A stretch of 64,000 nt of DNA from an uncultured Nitrososphaerales archaeon (GCA_963713605.1 CAVQMO010000003.1:414841-478840), one strand, 5' to 3'; shown: positions 51,892 through 62,281, numbered from the stretch's first letter. Program-made: numbers and translations. The notes: generated by a model not told the origin, from the letters alone.

Positions 51892-54160
51892 GTGTATACT
51901 CTTTCCCTCCCTTTCCCGCCAGAAGAAGAATTACTGAGCATAAAAGAATCGAAAATTGGAAAAGTTGAACCAGTAAACTATATCCGCAATCATTCAGAAT
52001 TTTGGACTGAAGAAAGACTCAAAAAAGAAGCCCATAGATTTAAAAACGTAGCAACTACTCTTGGAAAAACACGTCTCGAAGCAGAAGATGGCACTCCATT
52101 ATATCTCAATGTTCTTGATATAGATAGTAAACCAATCTTTACAATATTGAGCATAGTAAGTGACAAATATGGAAAAGATTGCTTTTTTCTAGACAAAACT
52201 TGCAAGTCGACTTTTGTGACCTGGACTAAAAAGAGATATGGACGACATATTTTTTGGTTATCTAAAAAGCAGTATGAGCCGATCATTACCAGTGAATGTA
52301 AACCTGGACACAAATTTGAAATCAAGACTAACTTTGGTTTAGTAGCTCTTCCAGAAAGTAGACATAGAGACAATCCTAATTTTCACTATCAAAAGATTGG
52401 CATAGACAAGATTCGAAAGAAATGGACAAATGTACGATTTCTTAATGGAAACTCTCAAAGATTGCTTAAAACCTAAGCGTGATAAAAAAACAAACTATTA
52501 TACAGAAGAGAGTACAAGTTGGTCAAGAATCAAACTAAATGATGAACAGATACATTCATTATATCAGTTGTTATATCCATGTTACACAACGGGCTATAGA
52601 GATGAAATAATATATGGTTTGTCTGGGTTATTGCACAAGCATCACATAGCGATCGAGTCATCTATGTCACTAGTACAAAAACTGTCTATCAATGATGAAG
52701 AAAGAGATAGCCGGATATCAATTTTGCATTCTACATATCAGAAGAATCCAAAAGAAGTCAGTGGATACCAATATCTTCTCTCAGTTTTGGAAAATGTGGT
52801 AGAAGGCGGTCTAGCCTCCGCAAAAAACATTCTAAGAAAAATTGTAAACATAATTTCTGTTAGAGACACTGATCAAGACATAATTACTAGTCTCACTGAA
52901 CAAGTCATGACCGAATATTCTCTTAAAACAATGAGAGATAATGAAGAATTGTACTATTATGATACTGGTCTGGGATTATATCTAAGGCTTGGTGATTCAA
53001 TCATTAAAGAATATTTAGAGATTTTATATCCAAAGATCAAGACACATATGGTTAACGAGATTATTCAAAAAATCAAACGAAGAACATATGTAGATAGGGA
53101 ACAATTCGATAATAATATTGACATAATAAATGTTCAGAATGGACTACTAAATATCTGGACTGGCGAACTTAGAGATCATTCACCAGACTTTTTGAGTATT
53201 GTTCAATTACCACTAAAATACAACCCGAGGAGTAGATGTCCAAATATTGGAAGATATCTGAGACAAGTATTACATCCAGAAGATGTACCTACAGCTTTGG
53301 AAGTAATTGGGTACACTTTATACCGAACTGCAATATACGAAAAAGCTGTCATGTTGCATGGAAACGGGGATAATGGCAAGGGCGTATTTATCAAAGTGTT
53401 AGAAGCATTTGTCGGTTGGCAAAACTGTAGTCATGTACCGTTACAAGATCTGGATAATGACAAATTCTCAACGGCTGATTTGCATGGAAAATTAGTAAAT
53501 ACTTTCGCTGATCTTAAATTTCAAAAATTAATGGCGACCGGCAACTTCAAGACTCTAGTGTCAGGTGATTCAGTCCGAGCTCAAGAAAAATATGGTAAAC
53601 CATTCAGCTTTAGAAATTACGCCATACTCATCTTCAGTACAAACAAAATTCCCGATTCGGATGATAAGAGTTATGCATACTACAAGAGATGGCTAATCTT
53701 GTCTTTTGAAAAAGTTTTTCAAGGGACATCAAAAGATACCGATCTCATAAACAAGTTGACCATACCAGATGAGTTATCTGGACTGCTCAATCTGGCTTTA
53801 ATTTCGCTAAAACAGTTAAAGAAAGATGGCGGATTTAGGGACATTTCAGTTGAGAAAGTGAGAAAAGAATATGAGTACAATTCGAATACAGTTAAAGCAT
53901 TCTTGGATGACAGATGTGTTATAGATTTGACTGCGCCAGATTATATCATATCGACTGTTCATCTGTACAGTGATTACTGGAATTTTTGCCAAGAAAAACG
54001 AGCGAGACCATTAGAGAATAATGTATTCGGTTCTAAACTAAAAGAATATGGCATTGAGAGAGATCGTATGAGAAGCCAGGGAGACAGAGAGTATTATTAC
54101 TTTGGTGTAACGCTTCGAAAAGACTTGCGGGGCCAAAATCAATCTCTTTTTAACAACTAA
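51892..54160 (+). CDS. Prim-Pol (AEP) fused to P4/D5-like SF3 helicase, frameshift near 52420; 5' end possibly truncated
   Basis: NVLDID, TKKRYGRHIF, FEIKT..LVALPESRH (Prim-Pol); INVQNGLLN...LRDHSPD (D5_N); HGNGDNGKG Walker A, FADL, FSTN, YYKRW; C-terminal wHTH-like LYSDY.NFC. Confidence 0.9.
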
Positions 54161-55519: not shown

Positions 55520-55873
55520 ATCTTACTCTTATCAAAAATGACTATTATATGAGTGTGACTTGTAAGTGGGGGAGAGAGGTGTACATGTATATTTTCCAAT
55601 ATTTTAAGTTTCATACACGTAGTCATTTCTTTGGCTCAATTGCATGGTATTCAAACATGTGTAAGATTGTATCATAAATGATTGTTTCTTCGCCGATTCC
55701 ATAAATAGTGCAATTACAGTCAAGTCCGACATCTTGGCAGCGAACACAAAAATTGTTGTATACAATTTTCATATGCTTGGGACATTTGATTAATGCAGTA
55801 AAATTTGTTATATTTACAGTGTGATGTATTGTACTAGCAACTACGATCTAAGAAATCTAAGTGTGATTGATAC

Positions 55874-55964
55874 TAATAAAATAGCGCCAGTAACTAGTTG
55901 ATTGTCAAATACTCGCTATACTTACCCCGCTCCCGGGGTCTACAAGTTACTGCTAATTTTATTA
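55874..55964. promoter_or_regulatory. Long imperfect inverted repeat with internal GC hairpin upstream of the radA-polB2 operon
   Basis: TAATAAAATAGCGCCAGTAACTAGTTGA versus the reverse complement of TCTACAAGTTACTGCTAATTTTATTA; internal ACCCCG-CTCC-CGGGGT. Confidence 0.45.
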
Positions 55965-56007
55965 ACAAAGAGTCAAGAATAGTTTAACATATACTGTCGT
56001 GATGCAC

Positions 56008-57029
56008 ATGACTAGCCGTCTGAAAGAAGTTGATATGGAAGAGATCCCAGATATCACTAGCGATTTGATTAATAAGTAAAAAAATTGAATATTAACTCGG
56101 TTTATCAGTTAGCAGTCCAGAATCCGGCCGAACTTGCATTAGAGTTTGAAGATACGTCGCTTAGCGCCAAGTCAGCTTCTACACTCATCGCAAATGCCAG
56201 AAAAATTCTTATTGATAACAATGTATGTCCGAAGAGTTTCTAACTGCAGATGATTTGTTAGAAAAGCGGAACAAACTATCTAGATATGCAACTGGTTCTG
56301 AAGACTTCGATAACTTACTAAATGGGGGTTTTGAAACCCAAGCGATCACTGAGCTGGTGGGGGAATTTTCGTCCGGAAAATCTCAAGTCTGTCACACGTT
56401 ATGTGTTTCCGCAAGCAAACTTATCGAAAATAACCCGGACGGTGACGCGGGGAACATAATTTTCATAGATTCGGAGAATACTTTCAGAGCTAATAGAATA
56501 CATCAAATTGTGAGCAACGGGGACTTGACCCATTACCCATTCTAGAAAAGATCTTTCATTGTCAAGTCTATAGTAGCGAACATCTAGAGTCAATCATAGA
56601 TGATTTGGATAAATCAATTGAGCAGTACAATGCCAAGATTGTGATAATAGACAGCATAATAAGTCTTCATAGAGCCGAGTTCTCTGGACGCGGAACACTA
56701 GCAGAACGACAGCAAAGACTTGGAAAGATGCTAAACAAGTCAGACGATATGCTGATATTTACAACATAGCGGTTGTGATAACCAACCAAGTAGTGTCGTA
56801 CCCCGACGGCACGCATCCGGGATTTGATTCCATGAAAGCGGCTGGTGGGAACATAGTAGCTCATGGCTCTACATATCGAATATTTCTCAGAAAATCTGGC
56901 AAGAACAGAGTGGCTACAATGGAAGACTCACCCTGCCAACCATATCAACGAGTGAAATTCTCAATCTCAGAAAGCGGAATCCAAGATGCTAGTTCTTATA
57001 AAACAGAAGAGAGTGATTCGGGTTGGTAG
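56008..57029 (+). CDS. radA: RadA/Rad51-family recombinase paralog; about 4 frameshifts, possibly a pseudogene
   Basis: N-terminal HhH-like region, F.TA polymerisation-like motif, TGS..FD.LL.GGFETQAITELVGEFSSGKSQ, FIDSENTF, IVIIDS, HRAEFSGRGTLAERQQ, ITNQV, GGNIVAH, EDSP. Confidence 0.85.
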
Positions 57030-58865
57030 AATCTTTACATTATAGTAAGTATGATGAGAATGCCCGTAATTCTAGTTCTCAAATACTTAGTAATTTATAT
57101 CCAGATCCAAAATCTCTTCCAACTCCACCGGCTTTACGTGAGCCGATTCCATCTGTTACATTATCTGAGCTCGAAGCTGGAAAATATACTTCAATAACGG
57201 TGAGAATTGCATATATCAGAACTACCGAAAAGCCAGATGCTCTTGGAGAGAAAATTGTCTTTACCGGCGTGCTTGAAGATTCTACATCTAAAGTATCATT
57301 TGTTAGCCATAAGATTGCGTATCCACTCATTCGGGATTCAGCTTATAGAATTCATTCAGCGTACGTTCATGAATTTCCAGACCGATCTTTATTAGTAGTG
57401 ATAACAGAATTCACTAAACTAGAGCCAAAGAATGTGGAAGATATCCGTGACTTTACATGGATTCCAAAGATCGGGGCTATCAATAGACCAGTTAGACATA
57501 TCTTTTTGAATGGAACTATTTCAACTATACATAGCACGTCTGGTCTAATCAAGCGCTGAAACAAATGTAGATCACTGATTCTGTACGACGCTAATAAGTG
57601 TCCCAATGAGTGTGGTATGGGCTATGCGTGGGATCTTCGGATATCAAGCAAGTTGTATGATGGGTCGGGCGCAATCAAAATGGTCTTGACCAAAGATTTT
57701 GCTGCTAAAGTGTTACAGCGAAACTTGAGCCAACTCATCTTAAATGCTTCATTGAATCAGAATAGTCAACAAGAACAAACTCAATCGAATAATAATTCTA
57801 TCTCAACTCTCACTATAGAAATTCCATCTTCATTTGACGTAGAAGAAGCAGTTCTTCCCGATTCTGTCTCGCCATCACTCTATACAAGATCTGATAAGTT
57901 AATTGTATCTAACGGCCCAAATCTGGTCTATTTCTCAGTAAATGATACTGACTTGAAAGCTAAATTTGCAGAACTGAATGTTAGACATCTCGATGCCAAT
58001 GGAGTGAATCTATGGAAGATACTAAAATTATCAGAAGATTGGTTGAGCGCGCGATTTCAATGAGCGTTCAAGATACTACAGAAAAGCGGATGAGACATGG
58101 AATATATCTACTTGAAGATCCAATTTCACTTTACAGATGCGAAAGAGCCAAGCTATATTTGGGATTTTCTGTGGATGTCAGAATCAATACACAACAACAA
58201 TACCGACACAAGCTGCAACTGACCATAGAACTAAGTCCACATGCTTACGTTCGGGAAACCGTACTCGACTACATTAGAATGCGAAGAGAAGCTGGTGCTA
58301 CCGCAAACGCGGTCATTCGCATGCTACTAAACTATCGAAGTAAAGTAATTGTAATCCGACTGGGCATTATGGTAGTATAGTTGACGTAATTTCTAGAAAA
58401 GCGAGCCAGCAAATAGTATCTGAACTAGATAATCGAAACTTGGTCGAATTTTGGAAGCAAGTTTATGACATCGAGATCTCACCCGATGAGATACCACTTC
58501 TAAATATTAAGATGTTGAACTCTGAGAACACTTTTACTTACCCTGCTAGCGTCTGTTACTTCGGCCAAGAATCATTGTATATTCCGGCTTCAGTTCAGAA
58601 ATTCATTGAATACAAACAGTCAAGGCTTATTCCAAGAATGTATGATGTTGTTAAAAAAGCGGTTAAAGATCTGAAGATTGGAGATGACATAGAAATTCAT
58701 CCGATCAGTGACGTGTATCGGGTGAATAACAGAGAAAATATGCGGCGACAAATACTTGAAGAAACTAGAAAGAAGCTTTACGGTAGAAATATTCATGCGC
58801 GTGGTTCAGTCATGTACGTCCATGATGAGCTGTGGTTTTTTCCGAATCAGCTTCATATTTCTTAG
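57023..58865 (+). CDS. RPA-like two-OB-fold/Zn-ribbon protein with an inserted Argonaute N-L1-PAZ(-L2)-like region; about 610 aa after repair
   Basis: OB1 (GVLEDST.KV.F...YRIHSAYVHEF); OB2 SGLIKR*NKC..CPNEC..WDLRI..KLYDGSG; L1-like KLYLGFSVDV...ETVLDYI; PAZ-like NLVEFWKQVYDIEISPDEIPLL...FTYPASVC; OB2 tail EETRKKLYGRNIHARG. In-frame TGA at 57557; frameshifts near 58005 and 58353. Confidence 0.7.
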
Positions 58866-58872
58866 TGATAAA

Positions 58873-59739
58873 ATGTCACAATCAGCCAACTCATCCCAGG
58901 TCTATTTCTCCGCAATGAAATGTGCTCTCGATCTGTTAGACCAGCAAAATACCTTACAAAAAGATGTCTACCGGATCGGCAGAGATTGATTCGCTGGTAG
59001 ACGGGGTCCAACAGGGTTCATTTTACTTATTCTATAGTAGTCACGAAAATCACTATTCTCGACTCTCTATTATATCGGCAATTAATCGGGTGCGTATTGC
59101 CAAAAAGCAAGAAGAAGAATGGCTTTGAGTCTATTGCAATGCTTTGCAATAATATCGACTTCTCTATAAATAGAAACAAGCATCAATTATTAAATCCAGA
59201 AAAGATTGCAATTACATCAAAATACGCAGGGATAGAGCCGAAAATTGTGTTCAAGAATTTGTATGTTCATACTGCATATAACGTAGAACATCAAGTAACA
59301 ATTGCAGAAGAAATTGCTAGCAAGATAGAATCAAATCCGGACATTAAACTTCTTGCAATAAGAGATCTAACCAAGTTTCTTGCCAGAGATACAAATGCAA
59401 GTGATGATGCTAATACACTAAAGAAGACTCTGGGAACAGTTTACAGAGCGTGCACTAAAAATAAAGTTGCCATTGTCGCAACGGGAGAATGTAATGTTGC
59501 TAATAATGGATTTATTCCCAAACCGGCCGGGGGAATGTATCTAAAACATACGGCAAATATTATCGTGCATATTAAACCAAATTTCTGGTCTACAACCAAC
59601 AATAGTACCTGTAAGTCCATCTGTCTCATTCAAAGCATCTATGATTAAGCATCAGTATCAGAAAACTCCCAAAGCAGTTAACTTTTACGCCAGAAGAATC
59701 GGTAAGCGAATGAACCCAATGCTATACATATTGGATTGA
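58873..59739 (+). CDS. Inactivated RadA-like protein of the PolB2 operon (several frameshifts)
   Basis: MSTGSAEIDSLVDGVQQG, then FYLFYSSHEN in place of Walker A; CVLPKSKKKNG, NLYVHTAYNVEHQ, LLAIRDL, PKPAGGMYLKH, MIKH. Confidence 0.7.
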
Positions 59740-59745
59740 ATTTTC

Positions 59746-60110
59746 ATGGGGAGAATAACACCAAGTTTTAGACAGCTTTACGAAGAAACAATTGCCGAAC
59801 TAAAATCCGAACTTCAATCGGCCATGGTTGATCTGGGTCATAAAAGCGCATTTGATTCATTACTAAAAGACGCGTGGAGTCGCGAACAAGTCGCTATGGG
59901 TAACTCCACTCTGCCGACTGTTTGCGATAAATTAAATCTGATCGCTTCAATTCATAATAGAAAGATTACTGCCCATTGGCTAGAGAGTTGAAAGACAAAG
60001 ATTCAAAGATAAATCAGTTTTCAGGCAGAATAGGTGAACTCGAAAATACCGTAAAGATCATTATGGATAAGTTAAAAACTGAACCAAATGATCTTGACAT
60101 ACCAACATAG
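59746..60110 (+). CDS. arCOG07300-like small helical protein (PolB2-associated), frameshift near 59972
   Basis: Diagnostic MGRITPSFR start, AFDSL, coiled-coil tail; directly precedes the polymerase. Confidence 0.75.
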
Positions 60111-60116
60111 CAAGAA

Positions 60117-62281
60117 ATGGTTATTCAAACTGCAGACGGCTGGATTCTAGATGTTATACAAGACTCTGCTACTAGCGATATTAATGTACTCATTAAATTA
60201 CAAGATAGTAATCTAATCAGTTTCAAGCAAAAACTCAAAGATTATACATTATATATACAGCCAAAAACTACTTCAGCTGGAGAAGATCTCTTTCAGCAAC
60301 TATCAAGAAATGACGAAATAATCAAGAAACTATTTTGGGATGAAAAGTATATTGATCTTACTGACAGGAACAAGACACAATTAATAGGAATAGTGCTAGA
60401 AAATATCCAATCACAAGACTATCAAAAGTTCATCAAGAAATTGGCGACAGATTCTAGAGTTACGTTCTTTGTTTAATACGGAATTGTCTGTCATTCATCA
60501 ATTTATTTACAATCAACTAAGAATTGCGCCTATAAGCAAGGTTAGAATTGATTACGATGAAAAAGAGTTGATAACTATTTCGAAAGTAGACGATAGTCAA
60601 GAGATAGCCATGCCCCCGTTCAAGATCATGCATGTTAGGATCGGGGATGACAATAAAAATGACGAAATAACATTCAAAGTTAGACTCGAGAATGGAACAT
60701 CAGACGTATATAATGAATTGTCCTATGAGAACTTTATTTCGTGTATCAAAGAAAATAAGTCAAACATTGCAATCATATACGAAGATTACCAATATGATTA
60801 TGACATTGCTAACTCAATAGATAATATAATTACCGAACACTGTAATCAAACCGTAGTCATACATAGCCGTGACACGGTTGAAGATGTTTCTCCTGTTGAA
60901 TTAGTTGAGAAAGCGCGATTCAGTTATCTACCTATAAAGCATGCTTCGAAGTATGGCATGTTAAGACTTATCGATAGTAGAATTACATACGAATTACTTC
61001 AGAGAGATTTTGTTGTCCCAAAGCGGCAGTCAATATCTAAGCATCACGAACAAATCAGGACGCTAAATGATATTATAGAAATGGATAAAGGCTGGAATGA
61101 TTATATCTCCTGAGATTGGTTTGCATGAGAATGTAGCGGTCTTGGATTTTAACGATGAATATGCAAACATAATTACAGGACATAATATTAGCTACGAGAA
61201 TCTATCTCATGATGGCTTTACAATAGATGACCAAACATCTTTACTTCCATTAATTGTACAAGAACTTGTCGAAAGACGTGTTTACATGAAACAATTTCTA
61301 AAGACCCAACAAGCAGACAGTATTCTTTACTCTAACTGTGAAGCCCGCTTAGATATACTAAAGCAAATACTTGTTTGTCTATATGGCACGTCCGGATCGA
61401 TATGGAATAGATACAGTAATGTGCGAGTCTTTGAAGAGATAAATAGACATGCAAGACTGATATTACTAAAGACGAAAGATATCGTGCAGAAAGCTGGTTT
61501 TGAGCTGATCTATGCAGACACTGATGCAGTTTTTCTTAAGAAAAAAGACGCAACAAGAAAAGAGTATGAAGAGATTATGAATGAACTTGTAAGCGCGACT
61601 GGTCTCCAAATGACTTTAGATTTTCATTACAAATTCTTAGTGTTACTATACATAGAGGCAGACGAAAAGATGGAAGCTCGTAAGCACTATTATGGACTCA
61701 CATACGAAAACCGACTAATTACTCGGGGCATCGACACGCGCAGACATGATTCCCCTATGTTCATAAAAGAATTTCAAAGAACTTTACTCACACAGTTATT
61801 TAATTGTAATAGTTCCGAAGAAGTTCAAACAGTGGGCTATGAGCATGCTCTCATGTATATCACTGAAAGCATTGATAAATTAATGGATGGTAACGTCCAA
61901 ATAACAGATTTAGTTATCTCCAAGTTACTACGACAGAATATCGAGAAGTACAGAAGTTTATTTCCCCATGTTTCAGCAGCTATTAGATTGAATGTATCCG
62001 GAGTCACTACTAACCGCGGGGACAATATTCAATACATCCACACAGACTCGAATCATACAGACCCGCTCCAACGAATAACACCCGCCAGACTAATCTCTTC
62101 TGAAAATTATGATAAGGAGAAATATGTTGAAATGCTACTCGACTCAGCGGAAGCCGTGCTATCTATATTCGAATTTAGTCGGTCATTATTTGGGTTTGAC
62201 AGAAAGAAAGCGTACCATTGGTGGGACGAGATATATCAACAACGCGAGCGAGATATTGAGTCGGCAAAAACAGAATTATGA
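60117..62281 (+). CDS. polB2: Family B DNA polymerase, PolB2 type; frameshifts near 60470 and 61090
   Basis: GWILD N-terminus, DKG/GMIISPEIGLHENVAVLDFNDEYANII..HNISYE, K.ILVCLYG..G, YADTDAVF, K.YYG, RGIDTRRHD, YDKEKY; no exonuclease motifs recognised. Confidence 0.88.

Follow-up and report, generated by a model that had tools for sequence, protein, structure and literature searches.

A predicted Argonaute N-L1-PAZ-L2 lobe within the last OB fold of an RPA-type protein encoded beside PolB2 in Nitrososphaerales archaea

An uncultured Nitrososphaerales archaeon (genome 87.5% complete) carries, within the 64,000-nucleotide stretch of DNA that was analysed and is called the window here (GCA_963713605.1 CAVQMO010000003.1:414841-478840; G000:C3:414841-478840 in our own labels), a cassette of five genes on the + strand between 56.0 and 62.3 kb. 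They encode RadA, a fusion protein, a RadA homolog, a small protein and a family B polymerase. The fusion gene, to which no Pfam family is assigned as a whole, is the subject of this report. As judged from its sequence and a predicted structure, the encoded protein is a euryarchaeal-type replication protein A (RPA), made of an OB fold plus a zinc-finger OB fold, with an Argonaute N-L1-PAZ-L2 lobe inserted within the last OB fold. We infer that it probably serves as a guide-free factor binding single-stranded DNA (ssDNA) and 3' ends in an extended PolB2 mutasome, next to an error-prone repair polymerase, and not as a guide-directed protein of defence. The window copy is non-functional as assembled, and our conclusions on function concern the intact family, whose proteins are roughly 500-630 amino acids (aa) long. 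The intact 615-aa protein of locus L003 (L003:79-1923), identical to the protein in L037, was used as the reference.

The Argonaute lobe and its RPA host

The structure of an intact relative was predicted from a 94-sequence alignment, with a predicted local distance difference test score (pLDDT) of 89.7 and a predicted template modelling score (pTM) of 0.64; an earlier fold with 24 close sequences (pLDDT 44.7) was not used. In Foldseek searches with this model, RPA ranked first (E 3.6e-11 to 8oej), followed by PIWI and Argonaute entries. A second structure search of 48,161 chains without Foldseek returned the same two fold groups, with whole Argonaute N-lobes at Z 11-16, and added SiAga1 (9lgw_B, Z 10.6), the APAZ of SPARTA (8j8h_B, Z 10.3) and CDK8 kinase module subunits (Z 10-11), the last of which we take to be probably Med13. 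Model residues 223 to 528-541 were aligned to MILI with Z 16.0 (283 residues, root-mean-square deviation (rmsd) 4.1), to CpAgo with Z 13.5 and to KmAgo with Z 13.2, while residues 223-528 matched HrAgo1 32-389 (Z 12.5) and Mili 227-559 (Z 12.2). A eukaryote-like origin is not claimed on these grounds: MILI is first by Z, but the other PIWI entries (11.9-12.9) overlap the prokaryotic ones (11.6-13.5).

Within the lobe, model residues 373-480 aligned to the Hiwi1 PAZ domain (3o3i) with Z 12.9 and rmsd 2.5 over 102 of 108 residues. This extent, together with the conserved aromatic and TYP motifs, indicates a full-size PAZ rather than the reduced PAZ*, and a 3'-end pocket is predicted. The Pfam PAZ model gave a weak match to the window fragment alone (E=0.014, 15.8 bits vs the cut-off of 28.8), and all 16 of the aligned intact relatives matched it at E<=1, the best at 1.5e-6. 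The PAZ-like region proposed by an earlier note on this DNA is thus real. The interval given there, 57740-58740, corresponds to reference residues ~241-575, almost exactly the insert. Two facts go beyond that note: the lobe does not end the protein but interrupts an RPA OB fold, and the gene in the window is fragmented.

Sequence comparisons point to long prokaryotic Argonautes (pAgos). The long-pAgo model PDLC02428 matched 14 of the 33 carrier genomes (best E 8.6e-6 per genome), the carriers being those among 238 genomes of the archaeal family that match the insert profile, a count that includes one weak match (G120) and an unpublished genome (G204). All 17 PDLC02428 matches fall on the insert and use only positions 19-295 of 666. 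The PADLOC pAgo models gave no match at E<=0.01 for three full fusion proteins, and no significant sequence match in the PDB was obtained for a single protein, for the insert profile or for the PAZ by itself. When the insert profile was run by hmmsearch against 10 pAgo-related proteins, two weak matches were obtained (14.0 and 11.5 bits, against at most 3.7 for shuffled sequences), and hhalign of the family with individual long pAgos gave weak or negative results (0.7%, 0.6%, 11.2%). These comparisons are too weak to name a donor lineage. Short stretches in N/L1 are common to the insert and a long pAgo of the family (L110, 376-2694), and the PLxKV..TYPPS end of the PAZ is common to the insert and a long pAgo of the phylum (L103, 1879-4344); these two proteins are candidate relatives of the donor.

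The flanks of the lobe, including the last 45 residues of the protein, belong to RPA. Over its first 245 residues the protein matches RPA/SSB proteins of haloarchaea (hhalign 99.3% and 97.4%), the former value being the match of the zinc-finger OB region to a haloarchaeal RPA of 424 aa. NCBIfam PRK07218 was matched at E=4.5e-17, and PRK06386 also below its cut-off; at 62.1 bits vs a cut-off of 447 for PRK07218, the whole protein fails the NCBIfam RPA threshold. In Pyrococcus Rpa1, residues 182-288 correspond to profile positions 124-225 and residues 290-323 to positions 523-556, a weak (E 0.08-0.14) but collinear match. After removal of the insert columns, the haloarchaeal RPA match rose from 89.6 to 103.7 bits and became continuous, and a flank-only profile aligned unbroken to residues 165-390 of the 424-aa protein. 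Pyrococcus 8aas_A 186-339 likewise aligned to model residues 108-576 (Z 13.1). The split Rpa1 match, the continuous flank profile and the 8aas_A alignment therefore identify the middle ~300 residues as an insertion. By sequence and model, it interrupts the zinc-finger OB fold after a helix and ahead of the helix and strands that close the fold. The hhalign match, the continuous flank alignment and Foldseek agree that the OB fold and zinc-finger OB fold of a euryarchaeal-type RPA large subunit are present, and the host is predicted to be a ssDNA-binding protein, monomeric or oligomeric. MID and PIWI are not in the same chain: it re-enters RPA where MID-PIWI would begin and closes with the RPA OB strands, and the 94 aligned homologs extend at most 14 residues past the reference end.

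The PAZ is the best-conserved part of the protein (top-residue frequency 0.61), followed by L1 at 0.59, a value like that of the OB folds, while N and L2 are lowest at 0.49. Conservation peaks on the aromatic and TYP motifs, with W479 in 93/93, F/Y478 in 90/93, Y/H483 in 90/93 and P509 in 91/91 sequences of the 94-sequence alignment. The ratio of nonsynonymous to synonymous substitution rates (dN/dS) was 0.05-0.16 over all parts, with dS near saturation; the PAZ values for two groups, 0.048 and 0.071, do not exceed those of the OB folds. In the alignment with the Hili PAZ (FLEYYSKNY), F478-W479 fall on its YY pair and Y483 on a further Y. A conserved YY pair of the PIWI PAZ is required for piRNA 3'-end binding in Aubergine (PMC4626872), and F478-W479 would be its counterpart. 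Purifying selection has kept this lobe, full PAZ included, in several TACK lineages.

The PolB2 operon setting

The gene order around the fusion gene is conserved. Among loci with enough flank, RadA lies directly upstream in 29/30 and an inactive RadA (iRadA) directly downstream in 26/27, while the small gene at the PPB2 position is present in 20/22 and the polymerase in 19/20. The upstream RadA keeps its Walker A motif across the relatives, and that of an intact relative scored 320.8 bits on NCBIfam RadA NF003301 (cut-off 259). As the earlier note had stated, the gene after the PAZ-like region is an inactive RadA; it lacks Walker A, the ATPase motif, and lies next to PolB2. The polymerase belongs to family B by Pfam and has an intact YADTD (DxD). 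The small gene is of the right size and in the right place and has no significant Pfam or NCBIfam model.

A PolB2-iRadA-PPB2 operon has been described (PMC4104785, PMC11791011), in which PolB2 is, according to PMC11791011, a damage-induced extender polymerase for distorted primer ends with a predicted complex with iRadA and PPB2. The last three cassette genes fit this operon (Sulfolobus Dpo2 type): the order is iRadA, a small putative PPB2 gene and a probable PolB2 gene, a further PPB2-like gene follows the polymerase in several loci, and the DxD is intact as in some TACK PolB2. A Nitrososphaeraceae row in the operon table of PMC11791011 (supplement 1) gives the same YADTDAVFL motif for PolB2 and the order iRadA-PPB2-PolB2-PPB2_2, with position -3 blank; our family B assignment comes from library models. 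Unlike this known operon, the cassette adds two upstream genes, namely RadA with Walker A and the RPA::Argonaute-lobe protein, and neither 'RPA', 'PAZ' nor 'argonaute' was found in the text and three supplements of PMC11791011.

The second small gene of ~100 aa after PolB2 is probably PPB2_2 of PMC11791011; examples are L028 2783-3115 (-), L038 13381-13638 and G000 C3:228503-228805. It is missing after the window copy. Two distant loci show variants of the arrangement: L079 has the same gene order with iRadA fused to the small protein, and L082 has a divergent Orc1/Cdc6 neighbour, which is also a feature of PolB2 mutasome operons.

MID-PIWI search, proposed function and alternatives

The earlier note had seen no MID or PIWI features in the window, and our searches agree and extend this to the whole genome. 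Piwi PF02171 had no match in the window or source genome, PADLOC PDLC02436 had none in the source genome, and a 12-protein phylum MID-PIWI profile run with --max against 66,793 six-frame segments of that genome gave a best E=0.55. Pfam Piwi is insensitive here, with 0/238 family genomes vs 6/238 by PDLC02436. The latter scored 9/9 tested phylum pAgos at E 3e-22 or better and detects 4/14 control genomes. Its six positive genomes include none of the 33 carriers, although 19 carriers have a completeness of 90% or more with contamination of 5% or less. Nor did any of the 33 match the MID-PIWI part of PDLC02428, and the distant carrier G635 was negative as well. That the sets of 33 and 6 do not overlap does not speak for mutual exclusion, as an overlap of 0.8 would be expected by chance.

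On this basis, and with MID-PIWI absent from the genomes searched, we consider the following scheme. In the distant past, the N-L1-PAZ-L2 lobe of a long prokaryotic Argonaute would have been inserted into a host RPA. The two OB folds would coat ssDNA at a fork stalled by damage, at a gap or at a resected break, the PAZ pocket would hold and protect the 3' terminus (a primer end or 3' tail), and the N/L1 part would sit at the junction of single- and double-stranded DNA. The fusion protein may then pass the DNA on, both to the active RadA of the operon and to a PolB2-iRadA-PPB2 complex that would extend the distorted or invading 3' end. The operon would in that case form a self-contained damage-tolerance and mutagenesis kit with its own single-stranded DNA-binding protein (SSB) and recombinase. 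A parallel is E. coli Pol V, which needs RecA and SSB.

Several points weigh against this scheme. Its 3'-end binding and its role in repair are read from sequence and a predicted model, whose pTM of 0.64 leaves the relative placement of domains uncertain. Sequence alignment rather than superposition at the residue level was used to place the pocket residues, and a Trp stands in for the second Tyr. Whether a PAZ domain takes DNA or RNA cannot be read from its sequence (PMC6299218). Most PolB2 operons work without the fusion protein, which must therefore be accessory, and L082 lacks RadA upstream. The trees of host and insert contradict each other in six pairs of well-supported splits. Moreover, all three copies in the source genome are broken, as are 8/27 fully covered copies elsewhere.

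The earlier note had offered two interpretations, a lobe acting guide-free after domestication or a split pAgo acting in trans, in which MID-PIWI from a gene elsewhere in the genome would bind the lobe, so that RadA/PolB2 are recruited under the direction of a guide. The former gains support from the lack of MID-PIWI in carriers and from the L2 end being tied into the RPA fold, and the latter is largely refuted and in our judgement scarcely credible; the note itself had named a lack of PIWI proteins in fusion-bearing genomes as its refutation. The lobe does keep N, L1, PAZ and the start of L2, its fold resembles the split-pAgo partners SiAga1 (Z 10.6) and SPARTA (Z 10.3), and pAgos occur both in the family (6/238 genomes) and in the phylum (15/401 genomes at E<=0.01). 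A trans partner would, however, be needed in nearly every carrier, whereas none of the 33 insert-matching genomes had MID-PIWI by PDLC02436, Pfam Piwi or the MID-PIWI part of PDLC02428, the source genome was negative, and the six positive family genomes were other ones; most carriers are fragmented metagenome-assembled genomes, in which a very diverged MID-PIWI could be missed. The L2 end is also built into the RPA OB fold, while described split partners are adjacent genes. A related idea dispenses with PIWI altogether: a short DNA or RNA would be held at its 3' end by the PAZ and along its body by the OB folds, with RPA replacing MID-PIWI, and this oligonucleotide would be given to RadA as a homology probe or to PolB2 as a primer for sequence-directed repair or mutagenesis. 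The retention of a full PAZ in its N-L1-PAZ-L2 setting, the co-encoded active-type RadA and the N-terminal OB folds of some long pAgos (PMC6299218) are compatible with such a carrier. The conserved gene set, on the other hand, holds no nuclease, reverse transcriptase, array or repeat to supply oligonucleotides, and at the sequence level this proposal is indistinguishable from plain 3'-end binding; we consider it improbable. If true, it would mean oligonucleotide-directed repair or mutagenesis from half an Argonaute, a prokaryotic counterpart to Dicer's acquisition of a PAZ.

The lobe might instead be a protein-docking or junction-binding scaffold without a 3'-end pocket, one that replaces RPA partner subunits or tethers RPA to PolB2, iRadA or RadA, e.g. 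via its PIWI-facing surface. Euryarchaeal RPAs use the partner subunits Rpa2/Rpa3 or RPA-associated proteins, and no separate small RPA-partner gene is present among RadA, iRadA, the PPB2-like gene and PolB2. The fold that bears the insert, the zinc-finger OB, makes up the trimerisation core in Pyrococcus RPA according to the title of entry 8aas; L1 is as conserved as the OB folds; and one protein, P0038, fuses the C-terminal part of RadA to the fusion protein (a single record, possibly a deletion product). The distribution of conservation speaks against a scaffold, because the PAZ is the most conserved part, has the lowest or near-lowest dN/dS and peaks on its aromatic and TYP motifs, while N and L2, where partner contacts would be expected, are the least conserved; such a role is unlikely. 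It is also conceivable that the cassette serves the replication or recombination of an integrated mobile element and not host damage tolerance. Its patchy range (33/238), several copies per genome, scattered fragments and variable flanks would suit an element, as would the Prim-Pol and D5-type helicase pair 2 kb upstream in the window. Yet no relative was found in viral_contigs with two patterns, 23 plasmid records match the RPA part only, no tRNA lies in the window, the flanks of ten listed loci share no recurring mobile-element gene, and the Orc1/Cdc6 neighbour of L082 is typical of damage-inducible PolB2 operons. We consider this role improbable, and the guide-free 3'-end factor of an extended PolB2 mutasome remains our preferred reading.

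Window locus, range and relation to known systems

The features of the window locus are compiled in Table 1.

Table 1. Features of the cassette in the window (positions counted from the first letter of the window; residue numbers refer to the intact 615-aa reference protein unless stated otherwise)
Feature	Position	Strand	Basis
Active-type RadA paralog, first operon gene	56002..57029	+	Walker A GEFSSGKS; Pfam Rad51 on fragments
RPA::Argonaute-lobe fusion gene	57023..58865	+	tblastn with intact 615-aa protein: three frames, 79-87% identity
First OB fold of RPA host (residues ~45-140), predicted	57152..57439	+	Ta0387 OB 2K75 profile E=2.9e-6; Z 15.1 to 1o7i, 13.6 to 2k75
Zinc-finger OB fold, first part (RPA OB-C type; CxxC...C-xxx-C/H; residues ~145-246), predicted	57452..57757	+	hhalign, PRK07218, Pyrococcus Rpa1 182-288
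Argonaute-like N domain and L1 linker (residues 262 to ~411)	57803..58250	+	structural alignment, PDLC02428; N/L1 boundary placed by reading secondary structure
PAZ domain (residues ~412-519), predicted	58251..58574	+	Z 12.9 to Hiwi1 PAZ 3o3i; conservation in 94 sequences
PAZ motifs	FW 58449-58454, TYP 58536-58544	+	F478-W479, Y483, P493, T507-Y508-P509
Argonaute L2 linker start (long helix and hairpin), insert end, predicted	58575..58718	+	model DSSP; Argonaute alignments stop near model residue 528-541
Closing helix and two strands of RPA zinc-finger OB fold (residues ~571-615), predicted	58728..58862	+	Pyrococcus Rpa1 290-323; flank-only profile; 8aas_A
Inactive RadA (iRadA), without Walker A, frameshifted	58873..59739	+	Rad51/RadA family matches, motif check
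Small protein ~120 aa, PPB2 (arCOG07300) position, frameshifted	59746..60110	+	position and size
PolB2-type family B polymerase, intact YADTD, frameshifted	60117..62281	+	Pfam DNA_pol_B E=1e-30

All five cassette genes are in pieces in the window as assembled. In the fusion gene, a TGA at 57557-57559 replaces the first zinc-finger Cys, and single-base deletions near 58005 and 58354 each cause a frameshift, leaving tblastn frames over residues 1-337, 329-449 and 447-615 of the intact protein. The upstream RadA is broken by four single-base deletions, and its stop overlaps the start of the fusion gene. Two more fusion-gene copies at other sites of the genome are broken as well. In close relatives the gene is intact in one frame of ~615 codons, and 19 of the 27 fully covered loci in genome_contigs are intact. 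In contigs from two studies with four sequencing runs in all (90-99% alike), the base that the window lacks near 58354 is present in 4/4 runs, the one near 58004 in the 3 runs covering the site, and those at three RadA lesion sites in 4/4 runs. The source genome has only 32 stop-to-stop segments of at least 700 codons, and one other polymerase gene appears split, while the housekeeping RadA is whole. The run contigs, the few long frames and the split polymerase thus make the breaks lean towards assembly error, the run comparison bearing on the single-base deletions, with the caution that the run contigs may be other strains or paralogs and that broken copies (8/27) occur elsewhere too.

Many scattered PolB2, RadA and PPB2-like fragments lie on contigs C2, C3, C5, C10, C12, C13 and C15 of the source genome, along with several extra intact RadA paralogs, three of them near-identical 355-codon frames on C2, C12 and C13; the cassette appears to duplicate and decay there. 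On one contig, two complete cassettes (L064 and L070) are ~20 kb apart, one intact and one broken. Upstream of the cassette by 2 kb, window 51892-54160 encodes a Prim-Pol N-terminal domain (E=0.004) and, after it, a D5/DUF5906 helicase that ends in a winged helix; replication modules of this kind are typical of integrated elements. A C-rich pyrimidine tract stands ~70-100 nucleotides before the RadA start and is followed by a TATA-like stretch; in several loci its complement precedes. It occurs at 55567-55581 and 55925-55934 in the window and also upstream of RadA in L037-L079. CTCTCCC was found in 11/21 upstream regions (shuffled maximum 8), which come from kin and are not independent, and a 10-mer of the tract showed no enrichment in the window as a whole. 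The tract is possibly a regulator site, a candidate from sequence.

The 87 pattern matches in genome_contigs fall into 36 loci assigned to Nitrososphaeraceae, Nitrososphaerales, Nitrososphaeria or unranked Thermoproteota. The fusion occurs in soil Nitrososphaeraceae, often as several copies. The full profile matched 3/401 phylum genomes, one of them weakly. Profile searches reached homologs of 500-590 aa with 25-50% identity, whose named sources include some Bathyarchaeota, Thermoprotei, Brockarchaeota and Nitrososphaerota and one Methylomirabilota bacterium. The word-indexed homolog search covered proteins up to about 1,080 aa. In a representative search, the long proteins P0242, P0265 and P0266 matched only 24-46 profile positions; a search for shorter homologs gave 10 proteins of 142-199 aa. 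Two single records, both possibly deletion products, depart from the usual architecture: in P0126 (391 aa) the zinc-finger OB is absent together with most of the N domain, and P0038 (798 aa) is the RadA fusion mentioned above. The fold matches in BFVD were apparently OB-fold and LEF-3-type proteins, none named Argonaute. Host and insert trees built from 43 of the 94 sequences correlated with rho 0.91 and shared 17 well-supported splits, which fits one old insertion event.

Compared with euryarchaeal RPA large subunits (PRK07218/PRK06386/PRK07217 and Pyrococcus abyssi Rpa1), the family has the same OB fold followed by a zinc-finger OB fold including its closing helix and strands, but bears the predicted Argonaute lobe of ~300 residues inside the latter and scores far below curated cut-offs. 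The N-terminal domain and additional OB found in the 424-aa RPA type are absent from it, and its gene stands in a PolB2 operon of TACK archaea. With long prokaryotic and PIWI-clade Argonautes it shares the fold, the domain order and a full-size PAZ, with weak sequence links to archaeal long pAgos; unlike them it has neither MID nor PIWI, hence no 5' anchoring or slicing, and the lobe is an internal insert. The N-part of split pAgos is encoded just upstream of MID-PIWI, the chain ends lie close together, and the PAZ is reduced or lost (PMC10954474). Split and short pAgo partners (AfAgo-N, SiAga1, APAZ) resemble our lobe as N-L1-L2-type modules apart from MID-PIWI. These partners, however, bind the MID-PIWI of an adjacent gene, lack or reduce the PAZ and end at L2 beside the MID-PIWI N-terminus, whereas the fusion keeps its PAZ, neighbours RadA and iRadA in carriers without MID-PIWI (0/33), and has an L2 that leads directly to the helix and strands by which the RPA OB fold is closed.

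Dicer uses its PAZ without PIWI to hold a 3' end. The nearest ESM Atlas clusters of the insert (residues 260-615, score 0.95) are eukaryotic PAZ, Dicer_platform and DUF4708 (C18orf63-like) proteins, these domains being carried by 18-27% of the members; DUF4708 itself matched 1/16 members (E=0.001). This likeness is a lead from cluster matches, and it differs from our case in the partner, RNase III vs RPA, and presumably in the substrate. DUF4708 may be another PIWI-less Argonaute N-lobe, a reading that does not appear in the titles or opening abstract lines of 20 listed papers out of the 37 that mention this domain.

The nearest published note (PMC6299218) concerns eight long pAgos that carry an N-terminal OB fold and keep MID-PIWI. 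No description of an RPA::Argonaute-lobe fusion was found in the searchable literature, a scope lying outside most subscription journals and closed bioRxiv supplements. The operon appears to be a variant of the known PolB2 operon, and the protein architecture appears to be new within that literature. In the literature consulted, separate Argonaute N-lobes are partners of adjacent MID-PIWI proteins and have mostly lost or reduced their PAZ; the lobe described here is the opposite and is placed in a core ssDNA-binding protein. The fusion may therefore serve as a natural construct for asking what N-L1-PAZ does alone and whether a PAZ acts on DNA repair ends. To the archaeal PolB2 mutasome, whose composition in vivo is so far only predicted, it would add a candidate dedicated SSB together with an active recombinase.

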